Assembly: GCA_958009085.1 (NCBI GenBank) | Contig: OY253672.1 | Span: forward strand, 372,001-436,000 | Length of the DNA: 64,000 bases | DNA from: Protoeuglena noctilucae | Lineage: Eukaryota | Direction of reading: 5' to 3' | Shown: one piece after another, positions 1 through 37,480 of the stretch | Layout: the number at the start of each line of letters is the position of its first letter | Position numbering within the stretch: the stretch's first letter is position 1 | Notes under the pieces: model-generated | What the model was told of the DNA's origin: nothing | The model's input: only the letters and a program-made list of their open reading frames with translations | Databases searched by the model: none | Program-made: the position numbers and the translations under genes

Positions 1-3000
1 CACGGACGTAGCCCTCCCTGCCCAGGTGCCCCATGCGGGCCACCAGCGGCCAGCACCGCGCCCACGGCTGCCGCATCGCGTCCGCCAGAGCACGCATGAC
101 CCCGTCCTCCCAGAACGCCACCGCCACCACCGCCGTACCCGCCGCCTCAAGCCGACACGCCACCTCGTACGCCACATTGCACGCGAGACCCTCTGCAGCC
201 AGCACCAATGCCTGCGCCAGCCCCGGCTCCCTCGCCACGGCTCGAACGCACGCGGCCACAAACACCTCCAGGCCCTCACGAGGGTCTGTTGCTTCTTGCG
301 GTAACTCCACCGTGTACACGTCCCGCTCCATCACCCCCCAGTCCGGCACCAGGCTCCCCAGGCCCATGCCAGCCGTCACACGCCAGCCCCCGCAGCCGCC
401 CCCGCTGACCGCGATGGCCTGGTCCCAACCGACCACGAGCACCGGCGCGCGCGCCTGCCCGCTCTTGGCTGCATGCACGCGCTGCAGCCTCGCGGCGACC
501 CCACCCGCAGCTCCCACGGCCCGGCCCGGCAGCTGCGACCCAGAAGTGCTCAGGTACCTCTGCGCTGCCTCAATGGCTGCCTCGTCGACCCCCATCTCCC
601 GCAGCTCCTTGGCCACTATCTGCCGGTCCGCCACCAACGCCAGGCGCGGCCCGGCGTCGCTGCCTGGGAGGCACTCAGACCATCCGAAGCTGAGCAGGTG
701 CGCCTTCATGACATTCGCCAGCACCGCCATGTCGGCCTCCTCCTGCCGCAGAAGCGAGAAGTGGTCCCCTGGGACGTCCACCACCTCCACTTGGTCGCAG
801 TACCTAAGCCAGCTGACGCCGTACATCTCAGGGCCCTGCCGCCCGTCCTGCACGTAGTCGCAGGCGCCACGCCTCGCCCCCCGGAAATACACCACGCGGC
901 CCTTGGAAAGACGCCCGGAGAAGGTGTGGCGACGCAGGTCGCTGATCTCCGATCCCTGGCGCACGGACCGGGTCACAAAGGCGATCTGCTCGATGCACTC
1001 CTCGAGCGTCAGGTTGGCGTTGCGCATGATCCTGGGAGACAGGGGTGGAAGAGGCTGTGAAGAAGGGGAGCAAGCATTCAGGGCGACAAGCATGCGGTCG
1101 TCACTTGCAAGGCGGCGTTACCCTGATGGTTGATGAGCGGCTAGTATGCACACAATTACTTGTCGCATCACATGCAGTCAACTGAGACAACCTCACGTTT
1201 GCTACCCATATAACGCCCCTCACCTCCACACGGGTGCGAAGAACTCCATTCGCTCCTGGAAGCTCATGCCTCGCCATTCCTCGGACTCCCTCGGGTGCGA
1301 GATGCCCGACCCCATGCCGATCGCGTCACGCCCCAATGCCCCCAATATCATCTCCACGAACTCCATGACGAGCTCACGAGTCACCTGGTCCGATTGCTCC
1401 AAGGGGCGCACCTGGTGCGGCAGTGGCGAGTCCATGACAAAGACGAGGCCCACGTCGTGACCCAAGCGCTCAAGCTGAATGGCCACCTCCAGAGCCACCA
1501 CGCCGCCGTACGAGTGGCCGCCCAGCAGGAAGGGACCCTGCGGCTGGACCTTGAGGATGTCTTGCACGTTGGCCCTTGCCAGGTCTGCCACGCAGAGATC
1601 GTCGTCCTTGTCAAGTACCAGAATGGGGCTGGAGCTCCACGCGAGCACGCGGGAGAAGGAGTAGTAGGCCGACTGGGCGTTGGCGACGCCGGGGGCGGCC
1701 AGGAACAGAGGCAGCACCGTCTGGCCCCTCAGGGTCTTGAGAAGGTCTGATGGAACAAGGTCCCCTGCCACCGGGCGAGTGCCCTCCCTGGGGGGCGCGG
1801 GGGCCGCGGGGACGGCTGCACTGCCGGGCTTGGATCGCCGGGAGGGCTGGTCAATTGTGGTGGCTTGCGACGGACCTACGACCTCTGCCGTGGCGCTGTC
1901 GAGGGCGCCCCTCGTGCCACCCTCGGCCTTCTCTTGGGCTGCACCAGAGGCCAGCTGGGCCTCGTGAGGCTCTGCGCTAGGGCCGGGGTCGTCGGGGCTA
2001 CCATCAAGGGCCTCTTGGTCCCCCATGCTGCAGAGCAGGGCGATGCTGTCTGCGATGAAAGTGGCGACCTCAGCAACTGTCTCCCAATCATACAACAGCG
2101 TCGGCGGCAGGTCCACTCCCAGGTCCTGGCTCAAGGCCTGCCGCAGCTGCATGCCTGCGCGTGAGTCGAGGCCCGCGCTCATCAGCGCTGCGTCGGTCGC
2201 GATGGGCTCGCCGGTCATGGCCGTCACGTGGCTCACGAGCAGACGGGACACCAGGGCCAGCAACTCGTCCCTGTCCATCGCCAGCAGCTCCAGCTGCCTG
2301 TCGCTCAGCTCCACGCCCAGCGACGAGCTCCCCGTGCGCGTGCGCGTGCGTATGCCTGCTTCCACAGCCGGGCTAGCAGCAGCGTCCGCGGTGACTGGCG
2401 CGTGCGAGGCAGGCTCCTCCGGCGCCGTATCGGATCGCCGGTGCGTCAGCGTGCCGCCTGCCACGCGGCCCTCGTCGATGGGTGGGGCAGTGCTCGCACG
2501 GCGCACGGTCCCAGCCACGCCCGGTCCCCCGCTGCGGTCTCCAAGGCCGCCGCTCGTCGCCGCATCTACCGTCCTCTCATCGACAGTTCCCCGCCTCGCG
2601 GGGGTCTCCGATCCGCTGCTGGTCCCCTCGCCACTGTCCGTATCCGCGCTGGCCCGTGACCCGACTGACCCCGCCTCGCACAGCGCCTCCATGTTGGCGG
2701 CAATGTGCTCCGCGATGCCCATCGGCGTCGGGAAGTCGTACAGCAAACTCGCGGGCAGGTCGACGTGCAGCTTGGCGCTCAGGCTCTGCCGGATCATCAT
2801 GCCCACCCGCGAGTCGATGCCTGAGTCAAGAAGCACTGTGTCAGGTTCCAAGGCATCCCCGGTCAGCTCCGTCACGGAATCCGATAGCAGGCCCAGCACG
2901 TGGTCCCGCAGGCGGGTCGGACCCATCGAGAGCAGCGCTGCGTGCTCTGGGGACACTGCCGGCCACGCCCTCCTTCCCGCAGCTGGCGAAGGGGCGGGTG

Positions 3001-6000
3001 GGCCAGCCGAGTCCCCAGCAGTGCGATCGCTCGGCCCCTTCCTTGGTCCAGAACCATTGATTTTCTCAAGTACTGGCTTCTCTTTGCCCTCGACAGCTTC
3101 CCATGTCCACGTGCTGCGCCACACCTGCCGCGTTCCAGTCTCCGACCCAAGGCTCGTGAATCCTGACACAGCTGCGCCGCAGAGACCCGAAGGGCGCGTC
3201 GGCGCTGCGTAGCGGGACGCGCCGGGGCTGGGGAAGCCCGGCAGGGGCACCGCAGCTGCCCAGAACCCTGGGCCCAGAGCATCTGGAACAGACACCCGCA
3301 TCGATGTTGGCCCCTGCAGCTTGAGCACGCTGACGACCTGCTGCTGAGCCTCCGCGGCGCCGTCACACACCGCGTCGTCCGGCACGGCGTCCACCTCGGC
3401 GCTGATGGCCCAGCCCTGGGGCCTGGCCCTGCGCATCGCAAGGGTGGGCGCTAGGCACGCGACAGCTGCACGTTGCGTACGCTCGACGCCCTCAAACGCC
3501 CCCGAGGCGATCGGAGCCCCCAGGAGCGCGCGGACGGTCCACGCGGGCCCTTCACTGGCCCCGTCAGTGACTGTCAGGGCCCCCGATGTCACGTCCAATC
3601 GCACCGTCACTGTGTTGTCAGCCGCGGCCCTTCTGGACGGCTTAGTGAGCTCCATGACTTGCACCCGCATGGACTCGACCAGCATAACCTCCCGACTCGA
3701 GGCCTGGTGCGTAGTGGACCCCAGGGCTGCGTCATCAATGGCTGCCGCCACGGCTGAGGACGCCAGGTTCATGAGAACGGATCCGGGCACCACTCTCGCC
3801 CCAGACATAAATACATGTGCAGCGTACACCAGGCTCGCGTCCGTGAGGCTGGTGGAGAAGGTGAGGCTGGCGAGAGAGGCGCTCTGGCAGAGCCGTGCGC
3901 CAGAGAGGATCCTTCCGTGCACCCATTTGCGCTGCCAGCGGAGCGAGCGATGCCCGGGCCACTCGCTGCCGTCCGAGATGCGGTGGCCCGCGCCCGCCTC
4001 GATCAGCACGTGGGCGTTGGTGCCCTGAGCCCCAAAGGAGCTCACCCCAAGCACCGATAGGTCGACCTGGCGGCACGCGGGCAGAGGGGCGCTCTGCCTG
4101 CCCGCCCACCCTGCGCCCGTGCTTAGGTAAGACGCCACATGCGGGCTGAGCGAGCGGAGGTGCGCGAACGGCGCCTTGCTTGCCAGGGATGCCGTCCTCA
4201 TGGCGTTAGCCAACGACTGAGCCCCTGACCCCGCCTCCCCGTGGCCCGTGAAGGCTTTGTGAGAGGTCAGCTGCAGCGGGACCGCCCCTGGGCCCATCGT
4301 GCGCCGCAGTATGGGCAGTGCCGCGGCCAACTCCGCCGCATCTCCCACAGCCACGCCATTGGAGTGCATGTGGAGCACATCCACCTCGGAGCCAGCCAGC
4401 CGCGCGCCCCGCAGCGCATCCCGCAGCAGGGCCTGCTGCGAGGGCGCGTGGGGCGCCGTGAGGGAGGAGCTGAGGCGGTTGGCGTTGACAGCCGATGCCA
4501 GCACACGGGCGCTGGATGCCACCACCGCCTGTCCCACCCCCGCATCCGCATTGGCCAGCACCAGTGCCGTGCAGTTCTCCCCGCGCGCGTAGCCGTCCGC
4601 CGCCGCGTCCAGCGACTTGCTGCGGCCGTCCGCAGCCAGCAGACCCGACAGTGCCACCGCAGCGCTCGCGTCCGGCGCCAGGCAAAGCAGCACCCCTCCC
4701 ACGATCGCGGCATCCACGGTCGCCCACCGCAGCGCCCCCGCCGCCATATGTGCCGCGACGAGGGAAGCCGCACACGCGGTGTCTACGCTGACCGTCTCGC
4801 CACCCAGGCCCAGGCAGAAGGCCACTCGGCCTGATGCGACACTGGCAGACGCGGATGTGAAGCCATACACCGACTTGGCGGCACCCGCTCTCACGCTGAC
4901 CGCCTCGTAGTCCCGCGTGGCGATGCCCACGTACACACCCACCCGCTCCGACGGCAGCTGGGGTGGAGCTACCCCATCGCCGGCCACCAATGGCGCAACG
5001 CGTGCCCGGGCGCCCTGGAGAGTGGCGGAGGCCTCCAGCAGCAGCAGGCGCTGCTGTGGGTCCATGAGCAGCGTTTCGATGTGGGTTAAGCGGAAGGCAG
5101 CGGCGTCAAACATCTCGACGTCTTGCAGGAACACACCATAGTGTGGGAGGAAGCCCAGCGGCATGTTGGAGTCTCCCTGCGTCTCCACATCCCACCTCGC
5201 AAGCGGCACACGGGTCGCCTGGTCTACTGTGCTGAAGACGTCCGGCGTTGATGTCCGGCCGGCCGGCCAGGGACCCGACATGGCCAGCACACACACGTCC
5301 CTCATGAGCACGTCGTCCTTCTGATCCCAGAAATCCACGCGAATGGCCGCGTTGGGCACCGTCCGCAGCTCGGTCGCCTGGGCGTGCAGGCCCTTGGCCG
5401 GCTTGGCATCCGCGTGACCGGGCCGGGCCATGTGATCCATCACATGACGAGCCACAGCAGCAATGGTGAGCTGCTCATTGGCTGAGGCGATGGGCAGCGC
5501 CACGCCGAACTCGTCCTGCACCCGCTGCTGCAGCTCCGCGGCCCCTAAGGAGTCCAGCCCCGCATCCAAGAGCGGGGCCTCGTCCGCGACCTCCTCCCCA
5601 AGCACCGCTTGTATGACGGACCGTACCGTGGCCAACACCTGACCAGCATCCGCGGCTGAGGCCTGGGGCGCGGGCATCGGCAGCGGCCCTGCCTCGCTGG
5701 GCGGTGCAGGGACCGACTCCCATGCAGCCTCTGCCATGGGCGGCTTCCTAGTAGTGCTGTGCACCACGCCGGCCAGCCACTCGGTCACGCCGGGGATGAC
5801 GTCCAGCCTGGAGCCAGCCGTCGTGCAAGTGCACGTGTGTGAGCCCGGGCCTTGCTGCTTGTGCCCGGGGCGCTGTGGCGGCGACCGCGTGCGCAGCATC
5901 ACATCCACAGCAGACACGCCATGACCCACCGCGTCTGTCTGGCTGCTAGTTCTCGCAAGCAAGGCAGACATGGCGAGGGCTGCGTCGGTGATTCCGAGCA

Positions 6001-9000
6001 GCGGAGAGCTCCCAAAGGCATCGTGTCCCGGCGACCCACCACGCTTGCCCAACTCTACCATCGCCATCGCTGCTACGGCATCACCGTCACTGTGGCGAGA
6101 GTGGACAGGGGCCACGAGCAGCGTTTGCTGCGATGAACGAGACCCCTCTGCGCTTGTGATAGTGGACCACGGGCGGCGCCTGGCCATCATGATGTGACTC
6201 TGGAGGAGCGTGCCTTTCACGTCTGACACCGTGAGCTGCCCATCTGAGACGCTGACGGCCACATCGCGCGTGGAGGGACCGGGTGCGTGTCCCAGGACTG
6301 CGCGGGACAGCGCCCCACGGACAGCGCTGCTTGTCACATCATCCGCACACATCGACTCCACCACAGCCGCCGCCGCGCTCAGCACTGCGCCTCCCAGCAA
6401 ACCCTTCCCGGCACTCCACAGTGCGTCCTTGAGTAAAACCCGGAAAGGCCCCGGCTGCGTGGTGCTCAAGACCCGGGACAGGTGCCACATGTCTGCGTGT
6501 GGGACCACGCTGGCCCTCGTGGCCCGCCAGGGCACGGTGGGTGTTTCTGACACCTCACGGTCCTCGCAGCGGCCGAGGATGGCGTGCGCCAGCGTGCCCT
6601 GGAAGGCAAAGGAGCTGACACCAACCGCAGTGGCAGCGCCGCTGGTGGGCATGGGCCCAGGCATGCGGGGTGCCGACACGCGGTGCCCAGCGCTGTCCAG
6701 GCTGCCCTGGATGTGCGGGTTGAGGGCGTGGAGGTGCAGGATAGGCAACGCAGTGCACAAGGTCAGCGTCCGCGTTGCGTGGAGGACGCCCAGGGCCCCC
6801 GCGGCCGTCTCCCCGTGGCCGATCCACGACTTGGCCGCCATCATGACGATCGGTAGGTGATTGGACGCACGGAAGGTGGCCATGACGGCGCCGACCTCGA
6901 CCGGGTCGCCCAGGGCCGTGCCTGTGCCGTGGGACTGCAGCGCTGCAACATGACCAGGGCCGACTCCGGCGTCACGCAAGGCGCCCTGAATGCAGGCGCT
7001 CTGGGAGGGCCCGTGCGGGGCCGTGAGGGACGAGGAGCGGCCGTCCTGAGCCACGCAGACACCCAGCACTCTGGCCAGGGGGGCCGCCTCTGTCGCAAGG
7101 GCGCCGTCAGCACCGTGCGTGGGTGAGGCCCGAGACGAGACATGATGCGGGGCTAGCTGTGCCGCATCAGCGCCACCGTCAGCGACCCGCGAGAGCAGGA
7201 ACACGACGCACCCCTCGCTGCGCACGTAGCCGTCCGCTGCCGCGTCGAACGTCTTGCACCGCCCGTCCGCTGCCAGCATCCCCGCCCTATGGAAAGCCAG
7301 GGTGGATCCCGGTGCAAGGAACAGCTGAACGCCCGCAGTGATGGAGGCAACAGAAGCGCCGCTGGCGACCTGAGCTGAAGAGAGCTGCAGTGCAACCAGG
7401 GATGCGGAACATGCGGTGTCGACCGCCATAGACGGCCCCTTGAGACCGAACGTGTACGACACCCTCCCTGCCGCCACGCTCAGCGCGCCCCCGGATGCCG
7501 TGAAAGGCCCAGGGGCAGAAAACGCGCTGGTCAGCGTGGCATACTCGCAGCTGCCGATGCCCACGTGTACGCTTGTGGCAGCAGGGCAGGGCCAGACGCG
7601 CGACGCCGTGAGGCACTCCAAAGTCAGTGAGAGCACCAAGTGTTGTTGTGGGTCGCAGTGCATGGCCTCTGCGATGCTCATGCCGAACATGGGAGCGTCG
7701 AAGACATCAAAGCCCTGCATAAAACTGCCGAAGCGAGGCAGGGGACCGTACGGGTGGGGGTCGTCCACGCCCCACCGCGTCGGCGGCACGGGCGTCACCG
7801 AGTCAGCCTGGCTGGGACGGCATTCTGGCGCTGACAGGGCGTCCCAAGGGACCACGTGAGCTGCGGCGACGATGGCCACGGTCCCTTGCGTTCCCCGCGC
7901 CAGCTCGTATACCCCAGCGGGCCTGGCAAGGGCGACAACGTTCATGTTCTCCAGTGATTGCACTGCCTGTGCGGTGGTCTGCCCCTCCTGGCTGGGCCCA
8001 CCGAGCTGCCCGTAGATGAGCTGCGCGATGTCCCCGGCTGTGGGGTGGTCCAGGACCAGCGTGGGCGGCAGATCGACTGAGAAGGTCGAGGATAGCGTCT
8101 GCCGCAGCTCCACAGCTCCCAAAGAGTCGATGCCGCTGGCCATGAGAGGCTCTGCGGCGTCGGGGCGGCTGCCCGTCAACTCCTCGACCTTGCTTTGCAC
8201 TGCCTGGAGCACATGATCGAATGGGATAGCATCTGCGGATCCTGAGGTCGATTCCATGCTTGGTCCCATGCCTGGGCGGTCATCGACTGGGATGGCCCCC
8301 GCAGCCACAGCGTTGTCGCCCTCTGCAGGGCTCGCCAGGCTCCCTGCGGCACGTGCCAGAGACCAGACATGCTCCGCCACCTCTGCCACCGTGGTGTAGT
8401 TGATGGCCAGCGTGGGCTCCAGTGGGACCCCGAAGCGCGACTGCAGCGACGCGCGGAGCTCCACGGCGCCCATGCTGTCAAGGCCAGAGGCCACCAGGGG
8501 CTCTGAGGGACCCAGGGGCCTCCCCACGAGGTCCGCCACGATGTCAGAAACGGCCGACAGCACCTCCTGCTGGCTCAGCTGGGGCACCGATTGCACCTGG
8601 CGCACCGTCGCCTGTCGTGCTGTCAACGTCGCCACGTGCGGCACAGCAGCCACCGCTTGGCTCGTCGATGGCTGGCGGACGCGGCAGATCTCGGATACCA
8701 AGTCGCGGTGTTCGGGCATAGCCCCACCCAGGCTCTCCGGCACCATCGGCGTCACAGCGACCGGGGAGTGCAGGACCATAGCACGATCGCACAGGCATCG
8801 GCGTAGCAAGTCTAGGCCCTGCGCGGGGTCCACCAGTCCCAGCCCGATCTTAGCCAAACGCTTCGCTGTGTGCGAGTCGCGAGCTGCCATACCGCCACCG
8901 GCCCAGCCGCCCCACTGAACAGCGATGGCGTGGACACCCGCAGATGCCAGTCGCTCGCTGTGGCTCTCCAAACGAGCATTGGCTGCCGCGTAGCACCCCT

Positions 9001-12000
9001 GCCCGGGGCTGCCGAGCAGGGCGGCCACGGAACTGAAGCTGACGAGGAAAGCTGAGGGGTGTGAGAGCTGGGCCAAGTGGCGCAATGCGACGGCCTTGGC
9101 AGCGTGAGAGGCACGCAGCGCAGATGGAGTGGCGCCGGACAGGGTGCCGTCCGCGAGCACACCCGCGGCGTGAATCACACCGCATAGGGGAAGGACTGGA
9201 GCGGTCGTGTGGTTCGACCAGACGCCGCAGAAGCTAGAGCGGTGAAGGATCCCTCGCAGCGACCCCACCTCCGCCTCCACCGACGCATCGCACCGCACCC
9301 ACGCCACCATCCCCTCCGACCCCACCGACCCCACCGCTCCCGCCGACCCCCTCCCTCTCTCCCTCGCACCCGCCACACCCGCCGCCCTCCCGCTCCTCCC
9401 CAGCAGCGCCACCCGCACCCGCCCCCGCCCCTCCCACGCCTCCCGCGACCCCAGCCACCGCCCCACCAGCGCCCCCAGGTACCCCGTGCCCCCCGTCACC
9501 ACCACAACGCCACCCGCACTGGCCCCGCTCCCCATCCCACCCATGCCCGCCCCCGCACCTCCTCTCCTCCCCGCCCCCCGTGCCACCACCACCTTCCCCA
9601 CGTGCCACGCCTGCGACATCTGCCGCAGCGCCGCCACCACCGCCCCCATCCCGTGCACCACCCGCCCCACCCCCACCTCCCCCCGCGCCACCCGCGCTGC
9701 CACCCGCCGCATCGCCCCCTGCACCGCCGCCCCCGGCAGATAGTCTAGCGCCACCAGCGAGTACGCCACGTCCGGCCGGTCCCGCCCCACCGCCGCCGCA
9801 CTTGCCACGTCCCGCTTCCCGATCTCCACCAGCCGACCCCCCCGCCCCAGCCCCGCCAGCGCCGCCCGCACCATCCCCGGCGACGTCAGGCTGTTCAGCG
9901 CCACCGTCGCCCCCCGCCCCGCCAGCATCTCCACAAACCCCACGTCCCGCGACGACCCCACCTCCCGCACCCCCCGCCCCCGCAGCAGCGCGCGCTTCCC
10001 CGCCGACCCCGCCGTGCACACCGCCGTCGCCCCCGCCGCCTCCGCCAGCCCCACCGCCGCCAGCCCCACCCCCCCCCGCCGCCGCCTGCACCAGCACCCG
10101 GTCTCCCGCCCCCAGCCCCCCCGCCCGCCCCAGCGCCAGCTCCACCGTCGCCAGCACCGTCGGGCACGCCGCCGCCTCCTCGAACCCCACCCCCGCCGGC
10201 ATCCCCACCAGCCCCTCCGCCCCCGCCACCACGTGCGACCCCAGGCACCCCCCCGCCAGCCCCATCACCGCCTCCCCCACCCGCAGCCGCCCCTCCCGCG
10301 CCACCCCCGCCCCCACCTCCACCACCACCCCCGCGCAGTCCCCCCCCGGCGGCCCCGCCTCCCCCGGGTACATCCCCGCGATGCTCAGCACGTCGCGGAA
10401 GTTTATCCCCACCGCCATCACCTTCACCAGCACCTCCTGCGGTCCCAGCCGCGACGCCACCGGCACCGGGCGCAGGTTCGACAGCGAACCCACGGGGGAG
10501 GCGACGAGGTGCCAGTCCTGGCCGTTGACGAGGCTGGAACGGCCGGGCACGATCCTCTGCACCGTCAACACGCCCGCTGCAGTCGCCGTGCATGCCTCAG
10601 CACCCTCCAGTGCAGCTATTGGACCTGTCGACATCACAGCGCTTGGTTGGCTGTCGAGCAGTGTCAACCATGGGCGCCGCATTTCATTCAATGCAGTGCG
10701 GCACAGTGCGGACCATGCCGCTCCCACTTGGGCAGCGTCATTGTTGGCATTAGTCATGGACTGGATACCAGAGACGGCATCGGTATGTTTGCCACCGATC
10801 CAAGCGTGCTCGGAGACCGCAGCAGTCGTCAGTGCTTCCAGCACTCCTGATATCGATGTGCTGATGGGTCTGCCACCACGCGCCTGCCTCCACAGAGCAT
10901 TGCTCGTCAGTGCCTGCCTCACTGGCTCAGACGCTTCCCATGATGTCTCGAACAGGGTGCGCTGCTGCATGGCAGCCGCCTGGGGCTGCGTGCTGCGTAA
11001 GGGCTTGAGCTGCAATGCTCGTACTGCCAGCCCCGCCGTCCCAGCTGTCACGTCCCATGCCACGTCGCATTGGTCGACCCCAGACACAACACTAGACGTA
11101 CAGCACACGGATCTGACCCCGGCACCGCTGCGTGGGACCACCTCGAGACCGTCAGTGGACCCAGTTATGGCATCGAATCCCACGGGCACCAACAGCCGCA
11201 GGGGCGCAGTGGGCGAGGACAGGGCGGCCTTCAGGTGCAGCGAGGCGTCCATTTGCGCTGGATTATGGATAAAGGACCCGGCGAGGGAAGGGAGAGCGAC
11301 GGTGGCCACACCCATGCTGCGGTGGCTGGGCACATCCTGTGGCCTGGTGAGCGCTCCGTGGGCCTGGGATTGGGAAAGCGAAGCGACGCGGGACGCCACG
11401 CTGCGCATCCGTGCTCGGAAGTGCGTCGTGGCGGCGCCTCTGGGGTCCTGGGTGCGAATGACGACCTCCCCAGAGTCGACGTCAGCCACCAGCGTCGCCA
11501 AGGCGTGACCCTCTGTGTCACCCTCTCCCTCCTGGGCCAGTCGCAGTGCTGCCGAGACGATGCCTAAGGACACCGCCCAGTCTCCCGTGCGAGTGGCGTC
11601 CGGCAGGGCCGTGAAAGCCACCGTCGCTTGGCAGGCCGCCTCGGCAAGGGCGACGCCGGGGACAATGCCCTCGCCAGAAACGCAGTGCTCCATGAGCCAG
11701 GGCAGCCTGCCGAGATCCATGTAGAAGACGACCTCGCTTGTCGCCGCGCCCCCGCATGCCGTCAGGAGCGAGAGGGGCGTGGGCACTGGGTACGCCCAAT
11801 GCCCCGCCAATGGCACGATTGGCGGACTCTGTAACCCCGTTGCGGCCCGGTCCGGCTCGCAGCGGAGCATGACGTGGGCGTTGCTGCCCTGGAATGCAAA
11901 CGCGCTCACTCCAAACACCACTGCATCGTCGGATGTCACGATGGGGCCGCCCTGCCGGGGCAGGTGCGTGAAGTAAGGGGCAGCGCGGTCGACAGCTGAG

Positions 12001-15000
12001 CCGGGCGCGTTGCCCATGACGGCCTGGATGTGGGGATTGACCGTCGTCAGATGCTGCAGCCCGCGGGCGGCACGGGATGCGCTGCCCACCACACCATGCA
12101 GCACGCCCATCGCCCCCGCCGCCGCCTCCCCATGCCCCGTCCATGATTTGCTGGCCTCGATCACAAGCGGGTGACCGGTCTGCCGAGCCCTATCAGCCGC
12201 AATAATGCTCCACATGGCGTTAAATTCGATGGGATCGCCCAGGTGCGTGCCTGTGCCGTGCAAGTGAAGGGCGTGAACGGCAGTGATGGGCATGCCCGCC
12301 TCTGCCAGGGCGGCACGCAGGGTGGCCTGCTGCGCGGGGCCGTTGGGCGCCGTGAGGGACGAGGAGCGGCCGTCCTGAGTCAGAGACGAGGCGGCGAGGG
12401 CCGCGAGGGCTGTACCCGCTGCGCTGGCGGACCATAGGACGACATGCCAGGCCACGACACCCTCAGCTCTGACGTAGCCACTGGCAGACGCGTCCAGGGT
12501 CTTGCACCTGCCGTCCTGCGCCAGCATGCCCGCCAGGTTGAAGGAGGTGTGCACCTCAGGCAGGGCAATGACGTTGACACCAGCCGCGATTGCCCCCGAC
12601 GCCTCCTGTGCCACGCAAGCCCTGCCTGCCAGGTGCAGAGCGACGAGGGACGAGGAGCAAGCCGTGTCGCACGACACACACGGTCCCTTGAGTCCCAGAT
12701 GATAGGAGACGCGCCCAGCAACGACGCTGTTGGATGCAGACGTGGCGGCGAGGGGCGACGACTCGAGAAGACCGAAGCGCTTGACGACCATGATGTGGTC
12801 CTGTTGCGATACTCCCACGAACACCCCGTGTCGGGACACGCCCTCGCTCAGTCCGGTCCCAGTCGCTGACTGCCCCAGCGCGGCTGCTGCCACGTGCAAC
12901 ACCAACCGGTGCTGTGGGTCCATGGATGCTGCCTCTGTGGCATTGACCCCAAACGCCTCGGCATCGAAAGCAAAGGGCTGGTCGATGAAGGCACCAAAGC
13001 GTGGTGGCACCCGGGCCTGTCCCGACACCGGCTGTGTGTCTGGATCCCATCGCGACAATGGCACGGGCGTGATTGGGTCAGTCATCGTTAATGCAGTCAG
13101 GGCGGCACCCGGCGTCTTCGACGCCACGTCGACGATGACCGCGGCGAGGCGTGGTGCGTCGTGGATCTGCGGCGGCGCGCGTGGGGTGGCAGCGGGGGCG
13201 TGCGGGCGAGTGTCTGTAGAAACGTGGGTCATGGACGCGGCCAAAGTGGCAATGGCTGTGACGGTGGGGTAGTCGAAGGCGAGCGTGGATGGGAACTGCA
13301 CACCCAGCGCCGACTCCAGGGCATTCCTCAGCTCCACGGCACCCAGGGAGTCCAGCCCCGCGGCCGCAAGAGTCTCCGTGTCAGAGACGGGACGCCCCAG
13401 CACCGTCCCCGCCAGCTCCCGGACTGTCGCGAGAATGCTGGCGTAGGAAACAGCCGGGGCCGCGTCAGGGCCGGGCGCCTCGCCATCCGCGGCAAAAGTC
13501 GGGTGCTGCGTCATCCGGCGCGGCACGTTCTCTGTGCTGTGCGCCAGGAGGTCGCAAACGTGCTGTGCGAGGAGCTCCGGGGTGGGGTAGTCCATGGCAA
13601 CCGTGGGGTCGAGCCGGACGTGGAATTGTGCCTCTAAGGCGCTCCGCAGTTCCACAGTGCCCAGGCTATCGAGACCCGCACTCATCAGGGGCTCCCCTCT
13701 GCTCACAAACCTGCCCACAATGGACGCTGCGAGGGCGCAGACGCCGTCAAGCACGTTTGCGAAGCTGGGCAGCGCCGCACCGGCAGCCGCCAAGCCGGGC
13801 GAGGCGTGGGGTGCGGAGGGGTGTGTGCTTGGATAGGCGAACGTGCTGCCGTGCTGGCCCGGCCCGGCCTCTCCCCGCCATGCATCCGCGGCGCTCTCGG
13901 AAGCCCTCTGCTCGAGCGTCGCGTGCAAGAAGGCCGCCATCCTCGCCGCATTGGGGTAGTCGAACACGACCGTGGCTGGCAGCTCCACTCTCATCGATGC
14001 TTCCAGCGACGACCTTAGCTCTGAGGCACCGAGGCTGTCCAGCCCCGCATCCATGAAGGGTTCCGATAAGGCCACGGACCTGCCCACAATGCCAGAGACG
14101 GCACTCAGCACCACGCCCTGCACCGTCGCCATGTCAGGGGTGCTTGGCTCAGCTGAGCGCTGCGCTGTGGGCCCAAACGCCCTCTGCATGCCAACACCCG
14201 CGGCGACAGGCGTCGTGCGACGTCGTGCGACGTTCGGAGTCGGCTGTGACCCACCCGCCGGCAGCTGCGACGTGACAAACGTCGCCAGGTCTTTGACGGT
14301 GGGGTAATCGAACGCCAAAGAGGCCGGCAGAGACAGCCCGAAGGCCGACTCGAGACCGGAACGCAGCTCTGCGGAGCCCAGTGAATCGAGGCCCGCTGCC
14401 ATGAGGGGCTCGCTGTCCCCGACGTCCCGGCCGATGATCCCAGACGCGACGCCCCTGACCCGCCGCAGCACGTCCGCGGACTCTGTCCTCTGCACCGATG
14501 CCGCAAGCTGCGGGCGAGGGAGCGGCGCGCGCTGCACTGGCGATGGGAGGTGGGTAGAGAGCAGTCTCGCAACCGGGGCTTCCGTCGATGGGATGGCACT
14601 GCCATGGGTGAAGAGCGGCTGCAATCGTGGGTTGCGTGCCAGGAAGGTCGGCATGTCGAGGGGAGCAGCGCAGAGTGCAGGGTCGGCGAGGGCGGATGCG
14701 CCCAGGGTCGCCTCGAGCGCCGCAAGCCCCGCTTCGGGTGTGATGAGCCGGAACCCCAGGCGCTGGATTCTGGCAGCCACGGCCGCGTCAGAAACGGCCA
14801 TGCCGGCGCCTCCCCAGGGTCCCCACTGCAGCGAGGTGGCGTTCAGGCCCATGGAGTGCGCCGACGAGCACCAGCTGTCCAGGGCGGCGTTGGCGGCAGC
14901 GTAGTTGGTCTGGCCGGCCGACCCCAGAAGGCTCGCGACTGAGCTGAAGGCCACGGTGGTCGCCAGGGCGTGCTGGGAGGAGAGGGCGCTAACGAGAGAC

Positions 15001-18000
15001 AGCCCAGAGAGCTTGGGAGCGACGACGGAGCGGATGGACGCGGGCGTCATGCGGGCAAAGAGGCCGTCTGCCAGGACACCCGCGGCGTGCAGCACACCCC
15101 ACACCCGCATCGGCTGCCGGTCCCGGGTGCCGCGAGCGCGCTCGCAGGTCGGCAGCAGCGCAGCACGGTCCTCTTCGCGCCCGGTGTCGCAGGCAACGCA
15201 GGTGGCGCGGCCGCGTGCCCCCGCCAGCCCCGCCATCGCCGCCCGCCCGCTCCTGCCCAGCAGCACGACGTCCCGCACCCCCCGCGACGCGAGCCATTCC
15301 GAGGCCAGGCCACCGAGGTACCCCGTGCCGCCCGTGATGATCACGCAGCCGTCGGCAGCGGTGGCACGGGCCCTGGCGCTCACCACCACCACCTTCCCCA
15401 CGTGCCGCGCCTGCGACATCTGCCGCAGCGCCGCCACCACGCTGCGCATCGCGTGCTGGACCTGGGGGATGGGCACGAGGCCAGCTCCAAGGGCCTTGGC
15501 TACCCTCGCCATGACAAGCCGCACCGCAAGGGGTGGCAGGTAGTCCAGTGCCACGAAGCTGGGCGTGACGTCGGGGCGGTCGCGTGTGAGCGTTTGCGGG
15601 TGGAACACCCCCCGCTTCCCGATCTCCACAAAGCGCCCGCCACGGGCCAGGGCAGCCAATGAGGCGCGGATGGCGCCGGGTGAGGTGAGGCTGTTGAGAA
15701 TGACCGTGGGTGCAGCGAAGGCGGCGACCTGGGCGAAGTCGACATCGCGCGTAGACGCCACGTGCATCACACCCTGTTGGCGGAGCAGGGCACGCTTGCT
15801 GGGTGACCCCGCCGTGCCAAACACCTGCGCCCCCATGTCTTGCAGGTAGGCCAGCGCTGCCATGCCCACGCCGCCCGTGGCTGCGTGCACCAGCACCCGG
15901 TCTGAGGGCGTCACGCGAGCGGCGTCGTGAAGCGTGAGATCGACCGTGGCGAAGACGGTCGGGCACGCAGCTGCCTCGAGAAGGGACGTGTGGGGCGGCA
16001 CGGGGGCCAGGTTGCGTGCGTCGGTCACGGCGTGGGTGCCCAGACACCCGACAGCCAGGCCAAAGACCCGGTCGCCGACTGCGAGGCCGAGCTCAGAGGA
16101 TGCTTGCGCTCCCACACGGGTGATGACGCCGGCGCAGTCACCGCCGGGGTCCCCGGCGTTGCCCTCGTACAAATCCAGGACATTCAGCACGTCACGGAAG
16201 TTGATCCCCACCGCATGCACCGCCATCTCCACCTCCATCGGCGCCAAATCCCGTGCTGTGGTGTGCACAGCTGCGAGGTTCGACAGCGCGCCACGAGGCT
16301 CGGCGCGGAGGGCCACGCGGGGCGGCGTGGGGCGCGCGGCGGCAGGCACGACAGCGGGGGCGAAGGCGGCGCCCATGTCGGACAGGTGCGACGTGCTTTG
16401 ACGAGTCGGCAGCGAACGTGCTGTAGTGGCACCGGGTGCAGTAGCTTTGGACGCGTTGTCATGACTTGAATGGCAGCCCACCACCACGTCGGCCCTTGCC
16501 ACGCGGCCCTTGCCCGCTTGCGCCATGCGCAACGGCTTGTCTGGCAACTCGGCTGCCAGAGTCCGCGCAAGGCCGGGAATCATGGCGGCCAGCGCAGTGC
16601 GGCCGAGGTCAGCAGCGACCCCACTCCCAGGGCGGCTGGGCCCAGCATCGGTGGCTGAGCTGAAAAGGGTGAGGTCGTTGCCTGGGCCCACTCGGGCCAT
16701 CGCAGCCTGTACTCCCGCAAACAGCGCCAGCGGGGAGGGACCCTTGATGGTCCACGTTCCGCGAGCCGGCGTCTCTGCTGCTGGCTCCGTCACCGCCCAC
16801 TGCAGCTCCGTTAACGCCTCCCAGCGGTGCGGCCCCGCCTGTGCCGGCTCAGGTGCAACGACGGGTGCGGCAGCGCGTTGTGTCTCGGGCGTAGCTCTCG
16901 GAGCCAGGGGCTTGGCCACCAGAGCTGCCAGGGTGCCAAACTTGGCACCGTCGTGATGCCCGCCACCCTCGCCACTCCCCACACCGTACGTGCCGATCAG
17001 AGCGAGCCCGTCCCGCTTGCAGTCTGCCCAAGCATGCAGACTCTCGCCTTGCCTCGGGACCCAAGCGGGCTGCGAGACATCACACGCCAAGATCGCCCCA
17101 GCTGACGCCGGCACCCGCACCTGCCCCCGCTTCTCCCCAGCATCGCGGCCACTCATTGCGAGATCGAAGAGAGCCCCCAGGTGCAGGGCGCTGTCCAACA
17201 GCTCCGGCGGCAGCAACATCTGCAGTCGGCCGGAGCTGCGGGTGTCCAAAGCACCGACCAATGCCCGGCCAGTTGCCAAACGCTGCCGTCGGACCAACGC
17301 GTTCAGTGCGGTGTGTGAAGGACCCAGCGGGTCCGATCCCATCGCCAGTGTCCCTGCGACCTGCACTGCGCTGGCCAGGAGGTTCGTGGAGGTGCCGCGG
17401 GGTCCCGAACTCGACACCCGCACAGCGCCAGACGCGCGAGTCACAGACACCGCCCACGCGCTGCCCTCCGCGCCAGCCAGGAGCAGCGGTGCGGGGATGG
17501 CGATGCCGGCCAGCGCCCGCAAACCCCCACCCGCACCCGCACCCGCCTCGGATCCCGCCAATGCAGCCTCCGCCTCCAGTGCCACCTCCATCAGCCCGGC
17601 CCCCGGGAAGAGCGCCCTCCCCGACACGGCATGGTCCATCAGATACGACAGCGCTGGCTGGTCGGAGTCTCTTGGGATGAGGAACGTGACATCGGCCGCC
17701 GTGACCGTAGGGGCGCGCACGAGGGGCAGCACGGGAGGGGCAATCCAGACGCGGGCACGGGGCCCTGCCGCGGGTTCACCGAAGGTAGGCGACTTGCGAT
17801 CATGCCCCGCTGCCTCAACGAGCACAGCGTGGGCGTTGGTGCCCTGAAAAGCGAACGCGCTGACGGCGTGCGTGGTTTGGTCCAGGAACGCCGACGCTGA
17901 CGGCAGGGGCTGCCGGGACAGCCGCCACGGCGACCGGACCCCCTGCAGCGCCTCAGCGACGTAGGGGTTTACCCTGCGCAGGTGTAGGGTGCTGGCGGAG

Positions 18001-21000
18001 GACTGATATAGCGAGCCCGCTGCCAGTTGCGCCAGTGCCACTGCCCCTGACGCCGGCTCGCTGTGGCCCAGCCAGGATTTGCTAGCCACGGCCGTGATGG
18101 GCTGATGGGAGCCCTTGATCGTCGAAACGATCGCCCCGATCTCAATGGGGTCCCCAAGCGCAGTGCCGGTCCCGTGCAAATGCACTGTCGACACGTCTTG
18201 TGCCAGGGTGCCACCCTGGGCCAGAGCCGCCGCCATGCACTCCGCCTGGGCTCGGCCGTTGGGTGCCGTGAGCCCCGAGGACCGCCCGTCCTGATTCACT
18301 GCCGTTCCTGTCACCGCCAGCAGCGGGCGTGTGTCTGTGTAGCCGTGCGCTTGTGACGGCTGCTGCCCTGGCGTTGCAGATGAGGACCTCTGCCTGTCCG
18401 CGTGCAGGGGCACCAACAGCGTCGCGGCCACCGCCTCGGCGCGCACGTAGCCGTCCGCTGCGGCGTCGAGGGCCTTGCACCTCCCCTCGATGCTCAGCAT
18501 GCCCGCCGCCTCAAACATCGCCCCGCTCTGGGGTATCAACTGCGTCTCGCAGCCACCGCACAGGGCCGCCGTGGCCCTCCCGCGCAGAACGTCGGTGTGG
18601 GCGAGGGAGAAGGCGACGAGAGCCGACGAGCAGGCGGTGTCTGCGGTGATGGCGGGCCCCGTCAGGCCAAAGACATACGCCACACGACCCACCGAGACTG
18701 ACATCGAGGTCCCCTGTGCCGTGCACCCCCCAATCGGGGTAGGCGATAAGTAAATGGCCAGACGTCTATACTCATTCCACGATATCCCGTTATACACCCC
18801 CGCAGGCGTCCCTTTGAGACCGTGCCCCGCCACCATCTCCGCACACAGGTCGAGGAAGAGGCGCTGCTGGGGGTCCATGTTCAGTGCCTCCGAGGCGCCG
18901 ATGCCGTAGGGAGAAGGGTCGAATCGCTCAATGTCTGGAATGTATGCCCCGAAACGCCTTCGAATGCGGTCAGGTCCGGTTGCCAGAATCAGCTGGTCGG
19001 GGTCCCAACGGGAATAGGGAACGTGGTGAATGGCGTCTGGCAGATGCCCGGATGCCATCGCCCGCGCGAGGCCGCGCCCGACGGCGGGGAGGTGGGCGCC
19101 CGACGCAGCGATCGCCACGATGGGTGGCACGTGACCCTCGGAGGTCCCCAGGGGCCGGGGTGGGGGTGGGGTGGGGGTGGTGGGTTGCGGCACGCGTGGC
19201 ATCGGCGCGTTGTGCTCCTGTACAGTATCGGGCTGCTGCTGGGTTGCTTCTGCGAGGGTGGTGTGGATGAAGGCCGCCACCTCCGCCAGAGATGGGAAGT
19301 TGAAGACGAGAGTGGATGGCAGGGACATGTGCGTCTCTCGAGATAAGGCGTTGACGAATTCCACGGCGCTGAGGGAGTCCATCCCCGCGGAGAGGAGCGG
19401 GGCGTGGGGGTCTGGGGTCTCGCCGGTCACCTGAGAGGGGCGCAGAGAAGCAAATGCGTGAACACTCAATAAATGAAGAAAGCATAGCTGGATGAGGGTC
19501 ATGTACATGGTGATATCGCAGGGCAATGGAGGGGCTTTGATGTGAAGCAGTGCAATGCCATAAGACAAGCGCATTGCTAGTCTAATCATCACCCATACAC
19601 AGCAGCTCTGCTCTGTCTTAGTCACCTGCGTAAAGACCTTGGCGACGAGCGCATCCACGCGCTCCCTGGTCCACGCGGCCCTGCTCGGCGCATGGGCCCC
19701 TGCATCCGTCGCAAACGTTGACCCCTCCGCGTGTTGCAGAGACGCCTGCCCTGTCTTGTCATCCGATGCATCTGATGAGAACGTGACGTCGGAGAAGAGC
19801 ATCGGTCGATCAGTCATAGATTCGGCAAACACCGCCCAGTCAAAGGGATTGGCCACCACAGTGTGAGGGTCACGCTGGGCCAGGCCAGCGGTGGGCGGTG
19901 CCGCGAGCACACACAGCGTCTGCTGCAAGAGTCGTATCCCCTGATCGGGCGACAGCAGGCCCTGCCCCAGTCGCCTCAATCGCCTCTGCAGAGCGGCGTC
20001 AGAGGCCATCCCAGACCCCTCCCACGCCCCCCACTGCACCGACGATGCCGCGTGGCCCGACTGGGTCATGGCCTCCGCAGCGCCGTCCAGGGACAGGTTG
20101 GCCGCCACGTAAGGCGCCTGGCCGCGGTTGGCCAGCACAGCGGCGACCGATGAGAAGAGAACCACAGCGCGTGTGCCGCAGACGTGCACGGTGTCAGCCA
20201 CCGCATTTGCAACCGCAGCCTTAGACGCCCACACACGCCGATGGGACGCGACCGTGACGTTCCTGCACAGTGCGTCCTCGAGAACGCCCGCGGCGTGGAT
20301 CACAATGGGGGCAGCAGTGGTCGCGCCTGAGCCAAAGCCAGTGGCACCCTGCAGGGCTGAGGCGTCCAGGCCTCGGACCGTCACTGCTCCCGTGGACCGC
20401 GTCAGGCGTCGCAGAGACGCCGCGGCCTGCTTCGAGACGCCCTGCCACCTGCCGCTGCGTGAGATGAGGGTCACGTGCGCACGAGGCACGGACTGCATGA
20501 GGTGAGAGGTCACCGTCAGGCCCAGGGCCCCCGTGCCGCCGATGACGACAAACGAGCGTGCCTGCGAACAGGATGGAACATAGCATGATTCGAAGCAGTT
20601 AAAGATGCACCAGTCGAGCAGCATCATGGCCCTGCCTAGCGCAGCACTGGCTGTGGCAACGGCAGCGTTGGCAATGGTACGACCCGCACCCGCACGCTCA
20701 CCAAGGGAGGGAGTCGCCGTGAGCGCGACACGACGACCTTGCCCACGTGCTGCGCCTGCGAGAGTTGCCGCAGCGCCGCCACCACGTCACAGAAAGCGTG
20801 GCGGACCTGAGGAAGAGGCTCTGACCCGCAAGCGAGCCGCATCGACACTCGCGCCAGCATCTGCCCCAGCGCCGCGGGCGGCAGGAAGTCCAGTGCCACC
20901 ACCGAGTAGAGCACGTCCGGCCGCTCTCTCGCGACGCGCTGTGCGGCGTGTATGCCCCGCTTGCCGATCTCCACGAACCGCCCGCCCTGCGCCATGCCAG

Positions 21001-24000
21001 CTAGACTGGCCCCGACAAAGCCGGGGCTCGTGAGGCTGTTGAGCACCACGGTGGGTGGACTGAACGCCAGCGCCTCCGTAAACGACGTCTCGCGCGAGGA
21101 GACGGCCGCACGCGCGCCCCACCGCCCTCGTAGCAATGCACGCTTGCCGGGCGACCCCGCCGTGCACACCACCCTCGCCCCCATGTCCGAAGCAGCCTGC
21201 ACGGTGGACATACCCACGCCGCCCGCGGCCGCGTGCACGAGCACGGTGTCGGCGGGTCCCATCTGGGCCGAGCAGTGCAGAGCCAAGTCCACAGTCGCAA
21301 GCACGGTCGGCACTGCCGCTGCCGCCTCCATCGCCACGTGCGGTGGGACGGGCGCCACCGCCCGCGTATCGACCCGGACGACGTCCGCGAGGGCCCCAGA
21401 CGCGATACCAAAGACCGCAGACCCCGGAATCAGCCCCATGGCAATGGCCTTGTCCCCCGCCCGCATCACCACCCCCGCGAAGTCGCCGCCCGGGTCCCCC
21501 GGATCGCCTTTGAACATATCAAGCATTGATAACACGTTTAGAACGTCCTTGAAGTTGAGTCCCACCGCCTGGACAGCCACCTCGACCTCCCAAGGGTGGA
21601 GGGCAGTGGTCGTGTTCACCAGTCGCGGTCGCAGATTGTCAAAGGTGCCCCGCGGCTGGGGAACCAGTCGGAAACCAACAAGCGGGGGCTCAAGGGCGGA
21701 CTGCGCCAGCACGCTGTGGGAGGTGGCGTGGGGGTGCAGGGCGTGGATGTCGAGGCGAGAGGGCGGGGCGAGGGATGTGACGTCTATGTGAGGTGACTGA
21801 GGAGAGAAGAAGAAGCGTGTGGGTGCTAGGGACTCGCCCATGGCGCTCTGAAGCATCCCGAGATCGGGGGCGGGCACTGGGGAAGCTGTACTGCCGGGCG
21901 CACTGACGGCAACGTCAGTGACAGTGCCAGAGTGCGGACTGAGGAGCGCATGGGCAGCGGCGAGTGCGGAGGGGCAGTTCCCTCCCTTCCACTGCAGACG
22001 AGCTCTGCTACGGCCCACGCCTGCATCCACCGTCACCCTGCCGTGGCTGGCGCAGAGGTGACGGTCCGGATGGGGTGCGCTTGGGGCGGGCGTGGCTGCG
22101 ACGTTGCGCAGGATGTCGTAGGCAATGCGACGATCCTCGGCCCGGGTCCTCGCGGACGCGCGCATGGGGGCCGTCGTGACTCCCGCACCCGAGCACTCGG
22201 AGCCCCTCCTCATGACACGCAGGTCTGACACGTGCCGACTGGCATCCGCGTCGCCAGTGCGCTCCCTGGGCAGCCACGTGGCCCACGACTCCTCCGCAGA
22301 CACGAACTCGTTCTTGCTGCGCCAGTCCCGCTCCCAGCAGTCCGCCACGCGCATTGCACCAAACGACACCGGCACAAGCACCGATATCGGCGGCCGCCCC
22401 GACACACCCAGCTGCAAGGCGGCGTCCAGGGCAGGTGCCACGAGCTCCGCCGCGGACAGCAAACTCTCCACGGCGCCCATGACTGGGCCCGGGGCCGCGG
22501 GAGCTGAAGGTCGTGAGGCAGCGAGCGGGCTCGCGCTAAGCGCAGTCGTCGCGCAATGCAAAGCCCCGCCGACGACGGCGCAGCGCCCGGTGGCGTGGGT
22601 CGTGGGCGCATCGCCCGACGCGTCGTGCGAGAGTGCGACGATGCCGGACTCTGGATGCACGGTGCAGCACAGGAGCGTCTGTCCCGCATGGCTCGCATCG
22701 CGCAGGATGAGAGGGGCGGAGATGACGAAGGAGGCGATCGCCCGGGGCTCCTCAATATCTGTGAAGACGTCCAGAGCTGTGCCGCACGCGGCAGCGGATG
22801 CCTCGACCATCGCCGCCCCCGGGAGCAGGGCCCTGCCCAGCACGACGTGGTCGCGCATGCAGGCCAAGCTGGGGTCCGAGAGGCGGCAGAAGACGACGAC
22901 GGCGCGGTCGGCAAGAGCGGAGCCTGACAGGGCCCTCGGACCCAGCACCGACGCACGACGCCAGATCCACCACGGCCGTCGTTGCCACGCCAATGGCGCA
23001 GAAGCCAGCGGGCCTGCCGCCTTGTCCACTGCTGTGTCAGGCACGTGCAATATCGCGTGGGCGTTGGTGCCCTGGAACGCGAACGCACTTACGGAGCCCC
23101 ACACGCCGTGGCTGTCAGGCACAGGCAAAGGCGCCACGGTGCGGGGTGCTGACATGGACGGCGGCGCGCCCCCACGCCCGTGGCTCCGGAGCGCAGCGGA
23201 GACGTAGGGGTTGAGGGCCACCAGGTGGTGCAGGGGCAGACCCTGCCTGCGGTCCTGCAGAGCCCGCGTGAGGGTCGCCAGTCCCACGGCACCTGCGGCC
23301 GGCTCCGTGTGGCCCAGAGAGGCCTTCGCTGAGGTCATCGCGAGCGGAGGGGCGGCCCGGGCGCCGGCCGGGGCAGCGGGGCGCAGGGCGGCCATCGCTG
23401 CAGAGACCTCGATCGGGTCACCCAGGGCAGTGCCTGTGCCATGCATCTGCAGCGCGGCGATGGCGGCGCCCGGCGCGTCGCGCAGAGCGCCGCGGATCGC
23501 GTCCTGCTGCGCGGGGCCGCTCGGGGCGGTGAGCGACGAAGAGCGGCCGTCTTGGTTGACGTGAACGGCGGCGACGATGGGGGCGTCGTCACCCGTTGCC
23601 TGGGGTGAGGAATGAGGAGTGAGAGTGAGGTCTAGGTGGGTAGGGGCAGCGTATGCAGTGGTAGCTGTTGGGGCACAACAGGCTGACTTGCAACAAACAG
23701 AGTGGTAATGCGACAGGGCAGTCACTGTTACCATCGCGGGACACAAAGCCTTAGCATGCGTGCACAAGAGGATGGAGCGGCTCGCATTGAGTATGGACTC
23801 GCACCTCGCAGAAGAGGATTGCCACTGCCGCCTCGGATCGCACGTAGCCGTCGGCCGTGGCATCCAGGGTCTTGCACCGGCCCACGTCAGAGAGCATGCC
23901 CGCCTGGGATCATTTGAAAGCAAGAGGATATCAGTCACTCTTTGATATACCACAGCTCTCTTACGTGACCCTGACCCTTTCCATCAATCTTGTCAGTTGC

Positions 24001-36282: not shown

Positions 36283-36584
36283 GGCCCACCCCCGGTGCTT
36301 TTGCGGCCGAAAACCGGCGACGGGACCCTCCTGTCAACGGCGGCGCGGAAGCCAGGGCCACCGTGAATCGCGAAGGAACGCGGGGGACGGCGCTGGCGAC
36401 CCGAGAGGTGAGCTTCGCCGGCCGGGTCGTGCCCTGCCCGAAACGAGGCCCACTCTTTCGATTCTAATGGCAGGATTGGCCCTCCTTGCATCAATTGGCT
36501 AGCTTGGCGTTGCACCTGACGAGCTCTGTAGAACGGAGACTCCCAGGCCCTCCCGGCACCATCCTAAATTCCCTCGGTGGCGAG

Positions 36585-37480
36585 ATGGGCAGCCTGGCCG
36601 TCATCACCGGCGCGAACAAGGGCATTGGGCTCGTCCTGGCCCGGCACCTGCGCAACAAGGGCTACAGCGTCGTTGCCTCATGCCGCACGGCCTCGCACGA
36701 GCTCGACAACATCGGCAAGGTCGTCGAGGGCGTGGACGTCCGGTGCGTGCGAGGGGACGAGCTCGGGCGTCGTTTGCGGGTTTGCATTCCGCCGCAGGAC
36801 GCGTGCCGGCGCTTCGATCGCCTGCCAGGGACCCCGCGGGGGTCAACCGCCTCCGTGAGGCTGTGGGCGATGCCCAGGTGAACCTCCTCTTCTGCAACGC
36901 GGGCCTGATCGAGGCCGAGGAGGGCGGCTCTCTCGACGACATGGTGCGCGCCATCCCCGCCATTCGGGAGGAGTTCGAGACGAACGCCATGGGGCCCCTG
37001 CGCACCGTGCACGCCCTCAACTCCAACCTCAAGCCGGGGGCCTCCAAGGTCATCGTCATTGGCTCGTCCACGGGGTCGGTCGCCAAGGCCCAGTCCGGCT
37101 CGTTCATGCCCGGCACGCTGGGCTACTCGTGCACCAAGGCCGCCGAACACATGGTGGCGGTGCACATGAGCAAGGCCCTGGCCGAGCGCAACATCCCTCT
37201 GGGCATTGTCCACCCGGGGACGGTGCTCACCGACAACGCCCTCGAGTACCACCACCAGGACGAACAGGCGAGAGCGGGGCGACGGGCGACAGGCGGGGGC
37301 GAGCCGTGTGCTTGGGACGGCGCTTTATGGGGGGCCCTGCGCTTGCAGCTGGTCAAGGAGAAGGCGACGGACACCGACGAGAGCGTGGACGCCATCATTG
37401 ACATCGCCGAGCACAAGGTCAACATCGAGAACACGGGGACCTTCTGGGATGCTCGGGGCAAGGAGCCGCGGCCCTTCTAG
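36585..37480 (+). CDS. Short-chain dehydrogenase/reductase (CsgA/C-factor-like), 3 exons
   Basis: ITGANKGIG, CNAG, YSCTK (YxxxK), HPGTVLTD, TGTFWD. Confidence 0.9.

Follow-up and report, generated by a model that had tools for sequence, protein, structure and literature searches.

A short, five-module PKS1-type polyketide synthase gene in Protoeuglena noctilucae and the predicted chemistry of its ketoreductase-less end

The window analysed here, a 64,000-nucleotide stretch of the Protoeuglena noctilucae genome (contig OY253672.1, positions 372,001 to 436,000), carries a minus-strand polyketide synthase (PKS) gene of ~31 kb, which runs from ~29,000 down to ~2 kb past the window start. The gene almost certainly belongs to the chlorophyte PKS1 (CrePKS1) family of trans-acyltransferase (trans-AT) modular type I synthases, in a short form with five modules, and its last two modules have no match to a ketoreductase (KR). 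An alkyl-hydroxypyrone is the leading candidate for its product, at about even odds. Green-algal PKS1 is needed for desiccation-proof zygospores, and its product is still to be isolated. The feature is real, the family is known and the pyrone hypothesis has already been published; what is added here is the short form with five modules, the assignment of decayed dehydratases (DH0), a count of KR-less modules that varies between records, and an apparent frameshift in the third enoyl reductase (ER3).

Domain organization and family membership

Pfam searches of four long reading frames, a motif scan and translation of the 5′ exons gave the domain order A-ACP2-[KS-DH-ER-KR-ACP]x3-KS-DH0-ACP-KS*-DH0-ACP2-TE plus a thioesterase (TE)-like tail, where KS* is the terminal ketosynthase (KS), KS5. 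Pfam and the motif scan placed five KS between the A domain and the TE, and modules 1, 2 and 3 carry one, four and two acyl carrier proteins (ACPs), respectively. The protein is estimated at about 9,000 residues, and Pfam matches in neighbouring frames showed that the 5′ end is bounded by other genes. No PF00698 match was found across the four PKS reading frames, indicating a trans-AT system. The sole PF00698 match of the genome was a FabD-like malonyl transferase on another contig, C3 (GLSLGE, GAFH). This gene (G000:C3:907,479-910,787; L005) has an N-terminal extension, and the genome has two trans-AT PKS. The features, all on the minus strand, are as follows.

26260..28960: A loading domain, N-terminal, acyl-CoA-ligase-like, in several exons
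24990..25620: two loading ACPs (GIDSS and GVDSS, the second split by an intron), from translation of the 5′ exons
19230..24830: module 1, KS-DH-ER-KR-ACP, fully reducing, with introns (Pfam, motif scan, translation)
13240..19110: module 2, KS-DH-ER-KR-ACPx4, fully reducing (Pfam, motif scan)
8011..13130: module 3, KS-DH-ER-KR-ACPx2, fully reducing (Pfam, motif scan)
10069..10077: nine-G run in the NADPH motif of ER3, with a +1 reading-frame shift (translation)
6571..7882: KS4, canonical (DTAC, HGTGT, KSWIGH; Pfam, motif scan)
5827..6568: module 4 spacer, putative DH0 without catalytic His (from orthologs and position)
5428..5626: ACP4 (Pfam, motif scan)
4003..5287: KS5 (KS*), DTAC, HSNGV, KAFTGH (motif scan, tree, and Table S3 of PMC4661987)
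3277..3937: module 5 spacer, putative DH0, with a His one residue off the catalytic column and without the second-half Asp motif
2038..2893: two terminal ACPs with the DSR motif typical of the family
700..1717: thioesterase 1 (TE1), GHSYG Ser (1513), Asp (1432), GDH His (763), with a GT-AG intron at 1032-1223
1..700, continuing for ~2 kb outside the window (L001): start of the C-terminal tail with further TE-like repeats

According to PMC4661987, CrePKS1, VcaPKS1 and CvaPKS1 start with an AMP ligase, are trans-AT and end in KS-ACP-KS-ACP-TE (Table S2), and their terminal KS carries HANGT or HSNGT with Cys and His kept (Table S3). The window gene resembles these three (the first being Chlamydomonas reinhardtii Cre10.g449750) in its N-terminal AMP-ligase domain and tandem ACPs, its lack of an AT, its fully reducing modules and its end of two unreduced modules followed by a conserved TE, and it has an HxNG terminal KS in an orthologous clade. 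It differs in having 5 KS, compared with 10-11 in the Chlamydomonas, Volvox and Chlorella genes, and about half their length; a count of 10-11 modules is typical of PKS1 and is not diagnostic. It also differs in reading HSNGV in KS5, in its doubled terminal ACP and in the ER3 frameshift. Unlike those genes it has no KR-only module, implying that its product would have no mid-chain hydroxyl. A PTNTAC-type KS, which five homologs carry one module ahead of KS4, is absent as well.

Domain order, catalytic residues and the orthology of the last module and the TE are shown by the sequences. A quick tree built from 56 KS rows (five truncated or motif-less rows excluded; window KS1 not in the tree) placed KS5 within a 13-row clade of terminal KS (SH-aLRT 99), and KS4 grouped with the penultimate KS of orthologs (support 89), in a clade that also holds window KS2. 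The first His of HxNG was retained in 12 of the 13 terminal rows and in L006, a closer metagenomic locus, and the terminal ACP carries the DSR motif throughout the family. The initial homolog search was dominated by bacterial KS matches, and a search with the TE exon gave 6 strong homologs among 25 matches, four of them from named green algae. Across six orthologs the first TE exon was the most conserved part (62-67% identity, against 37-46% for KS domains). L006 has the same order as the window, KR-ACP2-KS4-DH0-ACP-KS*-DH0-ACP-TE, with identities of 51% for KS5, 49% for KS4, 25% for the module 4 DH0 and 78/68/55% for the TE; the module 5 DH0 gave no match. The proposed link to CrePKS1 itself rests on published motifs and domain order.

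The five-module size has precedent in Micromonas MicPKS1 and Ostreococcus OtaPKS5 and OluPKS2, which the published domain lists give as A-started trans-AT lines of 4-5 modules, MicPKS1 ending in KS-ACP-TE. Unlike the window gene, their modules have KR or DH-KR without ER, and one KR-less module stands ahead of the TE. The five-module copy shows that the front end of PKS1 can shrink while the end stays. Two other accounts of the low module count were rejected. Collapse in the assembly does not fit the read depth of X5 and X6, which was flat over 600-13,000 except in G-rich bins at 9,708-10,535. A second PKS on the same contig (C5) is not the lost front half, as it is without an A, ER or TE match and its two tested KS group elsewhere.

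Reduction state of the modules

The initial annotation had described modules 1-3 as DH/ER/KR modules, and this was borne out. The dehydratase (DH) His and Asp are kept in all three (DHVVLG/ALDAAL, DHAVSG/LLDSAL and EHCVSG/MDASL), and each module has an ER and a KR, the latter with the motif YxAAN. It had also described modules 4 and 5 as lacking KR and ER, which was likewise confirmed. Pfam gave no KR or ER match between KS4 (7882) and the TE. A local KR profile, built from 80 of 220 collected KR pieces, found nothing in window modules 4-5, while the control modules 2 and 3 scored 239 and 176 bits. The same profile was run on 12 sequences from the penultimate KS onwards, two of them, including P0162, being scanned whole. 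The result showed no KR downstream of the penultimate KS in 10 of the 12 (the window and nine homologs); in the other two, P0305 and P0128, a KR was present because each has a single KR-less module.

The spacers behind KS4 and KS5 are 340 and 396 residues long. In profile-profile comparison they aligned with DH at probabilities of 99.5% (module 4, 7 rows) and 98.5% (module 5, 6 rows), compared with at most 0.1% for KR and the KR structural half. The ESM Atlas matched the module 5 spacer to a PKS DH at 0.95 and gave no usable match for the module 4 spacer. By itself the window module 4 spacer reached 0.7% against DH, too diverged for assignment alone, and its putative identity as DH0 comes from its orthologs and position. 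The catalytic His is found in three of the seven module 4 spacers, not including that of the window, and Glu replaces Asp in those three. In none of the six module 5 spacers does a His stand at the catalytic column, those of the window and P0125 having one that is one residue off. Judging by these alignments, the extra domains of modules 4 and 5 are decayed dehydratases and not hidden KRs. A cryptic KR, named beforehand as a finding that would count against a pyrone, is ruled out by the lack of any Pfam, KR-profile or profile-profile match in modules 4-5.

The motif AAHVFMSG had suggested that the module 5 spacer might work as a functional DH, a pyran synthase or a product template; this was rejected because a His at the catalytic column is missing in six of six aligned spacers. 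Modelling of module 5 with AlphaFold, on an alignment of nine rows, reached a mean pLDDT of 44, and Foldseek returned KS domains only; the model was not used. In a figure legend of PMC7073580, some PKS1 domains are marked unassigned, and the spacer domains previously left without a name would now be called dead dehydratases. A limited set of literature yielded nothing on the DH0 assignment or on the Picocystis form described below.

Proposed product and alternative chemistries

On the pyrone reading, for which we infer collinearity, elongation by KS5, cyclisation, the starter and the wall role, the A domain would activate an acyl starter and pass it to the tandem ACPs, and a free malonyl transferase would load the ACPs. 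Modules 1-3 would contribute six saturated carbons, and KS4 and KS5 would contribute two unreduced units (four carbons), the DH0 domains being structural. The 3,5-dioxoacyl thioester would then ring-close on or at TE1 to a 6-alkyl-4-hydroxy-2-pyrone. By collinearity, a C16-C18 starter would give a pyrone tail of C21-C23 and a short starter a small pyrone; the A domain sequence does not settle the choice. For the Chlamydomonas monoica wall polymer C22-C30 chains are cited, a range near which the C21-C23 tail would lie. With fewer modules, the line would use a longer starter or iterate, or else its product would be shorter. The lipid would most likely be built into a resistant zygote or cyst wall layer, a role borrowed by analogy from Chlamydomonas PKS1, for which second-hand accounts report pks1 mutants without wall knobs and with desiccation tolerance lost (PMC6912462, and for the mutant phenotype also PMC11808170, PMC9832785 and PMC12633428).

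The collinear reading of the initial annotation is partly supported, and gains from the lack of a cryptic KR and from the retained residues of KS5 and the TE. KS5 keeps Cys, His and His, with HSNGV where HGTGT is usual, and the TE1 triad of Ser, Asp and His is intact. The prediction was not new, since PMC7073580 already takes two final modules without reducing domains to suggest a product resembling a triketide, which might close to a hydroxy pyrone, and proposes the PKS1 product as a zygote wall component. In bacterial type I lines, two unreduced extensions give alpha-pyrones even without a TE, the precedents being venemycin and truncated Plt lines (PMC10204065 and PMC6941969). Judged from the sequence, a pyrone is plausible, though not a new idea.

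Several points weigh against it. According to PMC7073580, no product has been isolated for any PKS1 family member. The record P0305, which UniRef names Picocystis salinarum, reads ER end, KR, ACP, KS* (HSNGT), DH0, ACP (DSR) and TE x3, without module 4; with the KS*-TE end right behind a fully reducing module, one unreduced step at most could occur and no pyrone would be possible. P0128, a Haematococcus model, is without KS*, and the domain lists of PMC4661987 give MnePKS8, MicPKS1 and MccPKS1 one KR-less module ahead of the TE. P0305 and P0128 are single records in which the junction at the missing module falls in an ACP, and either could reflect an assembly or annotation error. The KS* His is lost in the paralog P0158 (AANGT). 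Spontaneous release of a pyrone would seem to call for less than so conserved a TE with extra TE-like repeats, and the TE was dispensable in PMC10204065. The ER3 frameshift may also cut the protein ahead of modules 4-5. Given the records with a single KR-less module, the pyrone is not proven as a constant of the PKS1 family.

These records bear on a rival in which KS* does not elongate and KS*-DH0-ACP(DSR)-TE is a hand-over or release unit, so that one unreduced unit would lead to a 3-oxo acid, methyl ketone, ester or amide. We consider this rather unlikely. In favour of such a role, KS* falls in a separate clade whose motifs are altered (HxNG and KG(Y/F)TGH), the unit also stands behind a fully reducing module in P0305, and P0158 has lost the His. 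Among NCBIfam models the TE exon matches Pks13 best, though weakly (E 2e-10). The TE of Pks13 hands its chain over to a sugar. However, the Cys, His, Lys and His are retained in 12 of 13 clade members, and in L006 KS5 is no less conserved than KS4. In PMC4661987, the criterion for a non-elongating KS0 is loss of the HGTGT His, and the terminal PKS1 KS are set apart from such His-less true KS0; HSNGV in KS5 retains the His. If both modules do elongate, the 3,5-dioxoacyl chain might instead stay linear and be hydrolysed or transferred by TE1; the product would then be a 2,4-diketone, once decarboxylated, or a dioxoacyl ester built into a wall polymer. The highly conserved TE with Ser-Asp-His and its TE-like repeat tail would suit this outcome, which is compatible with one- and two-KR-less-module architectures alike, but Plt unreduced triketide thioesters cyclised without a TE (PMC10204065) and pyrone formation would compete; we regard it as unlikely. 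Very unlikely is a free-standing reductase working in trans on modules 4-5, which would lead to hydroxy or lactone products and not to a pyrone. A candidate would be the short-chain dehydrogenase gene at 36,503-37,480, ~7.5 kb from the PKS start, and three of seven homologous module 4 spacers keep the DH His; against this, the dehydrogenase is generic with weak PDB matches only (best E 2.5e-7), succinate dehydrogenase and other genes lie between it and the PKS, and the window DH0 domains are without the catalytic dyad.

We tentatively suggest that KS*(HxNG)-DH0-ACP(DSR)-triple TE is a portable PKS1 finishing unit responsible for making or transferring a wall lipid's head group, with a variable set of modules ahead of it: ~nine reducing ones in Chlamydomonas, three here, and in Picocystis no KR-less module 4. 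If so, lineages would tune the tail length and the head group (pyrone or beta-keto) of a sporopollenin-like type I monomer, a convergence with land plants, and this short copy would offer a compact natural system for identifying that monomer.

If the alkyl-pyrone is the true product, chlorophytes and land plants would have arrived at similar wall monomers via unrelated enzymes. Plant ACOS5 with PKSA/B (LAP5/6) combines acyl activation and unreduced malonyl extensions into alkyl alpha-pyrones of a wall polymer (PMC8133574), as proposed here; unlike the window line, the plant enzymes are type III, ACP-free and iterative. The parallel to sporopollenin drawn in the initial annotation holds as analogy and not as homology. 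No type III PKS (PF00195) match was found in this genome, against 4 of 14 control genomes that were positive; the absence is weak, as the genome may be incomplete. In addition, 10.1101/2024.10.10.617703 argues that the ACOS/ASCL/TKPR route is absent from green algae. Like the window line, the venemycin synthase VemG/VemH loads through an A domain, has a dead processing domain for a spacer and ends in a TE; its two unreduced extensions, as predicted here for modules 4-5, lead to an alpha-pyrone. It differs in being bacterial and cis-AT, with an aromatic starter, no reducing modules and KR0 instead of DH0, and would be a functional parallel rather than a family to which the window gene belongs.

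Apparent frameshift in ER3 and further observations

The +1 shift lies upstream of modules 4-5, with KR3 and those two modules read in a different frame from modules 1-3. Independently of the chemistry, the copy might be broken in the sequenced strain, translation stopping at 9234 and modules 4-5-TE not being on the same chain. The ER motif runs on gapless in the other frame, implying no room for an intron, and a contig of X4, a run labelled as the source organism, has the same length of 83 letters across 10019-10101. However, no G run in the gene is longer than the one that holds the shift, a typical site of sequencing error; the assembly may itself derive from X4, whose 83 letters were skipped as a repeat and not compared. 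Catalytic residues are intact on either side, the long pieces listed for three marine DNA or isolate runs match with no differing letter, and the RNA run X9 has pieces on either side of the site. Taken together, a broken copy seems a lesser possibility. Among the pieces listed for X5, X6 and X9, none crosses 10,069-10,077. Nor was an independent record of the shift found: an exact-match scan gave 0 stretches, a protein search gave no record of the region, and L006 ends before ER3. Over window positions 9,250-10,500, ER3 and the start of KR3 use almost only G-ending codons, so that the tract is very rich in G and carries two long frames that overlap.

Expression of the PKS is hinted at by contigs of the X9 RNA library that match exactly to either side of it, around the G run, none of those listed crossing an intron. 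Possible RNA runs with the same species label (X17-X20) contained next to no PKS words and give no evidence either way. The PKS stretch is present too in marine metagenome runs.

The host genome comprises 26.3 Mb in 27 contigs. Around the PKS, 13 of 60 frames scanned with Pfam at window 31,800-55,000 had a match, with no tailoring cluster evident; the neighbours encode a succinate dehydrogenase flavoprotein, the short-chain dehydrogenase, an Arf GTPase, a GH32 hydrolase, a BT1 transporter and a PCI-domain protein. The second trans-AT PKS (G000:C5:94,283-105,867; L002-L003) reads KS-KR-ACP, KS-DH-KR-ACP2, KS-DH-KR-ACP2, and the KS C-terminal halves and ACP pairs of its modules 2 and 3 are near-identical; A, ER and TE were not matched within 86-116 kb of C5.

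The PKS tail (window 1-700 and L001:5,900-8,000) contains two more TE-like repeats, the third repeat reading GVGYAG without the Ser here and keeping GHSFG in P0151 and P0305. Three Pfam thioesterase stretches each were found in P0151, P0305 and P0158. P0151 (KS*-DH0-ACP-TE3), labelled as the haptophyte Diacronema (Pavlova) lutheri, is sister to the Picocystis KS*, and contamination is the simplest reading of its label. In Pedinophyceae sp. YPF-701 the terminal unit occurs twice (P0125 and P0158), once with HSNGT and once with AANGT and the variant TE motif GYSHG.

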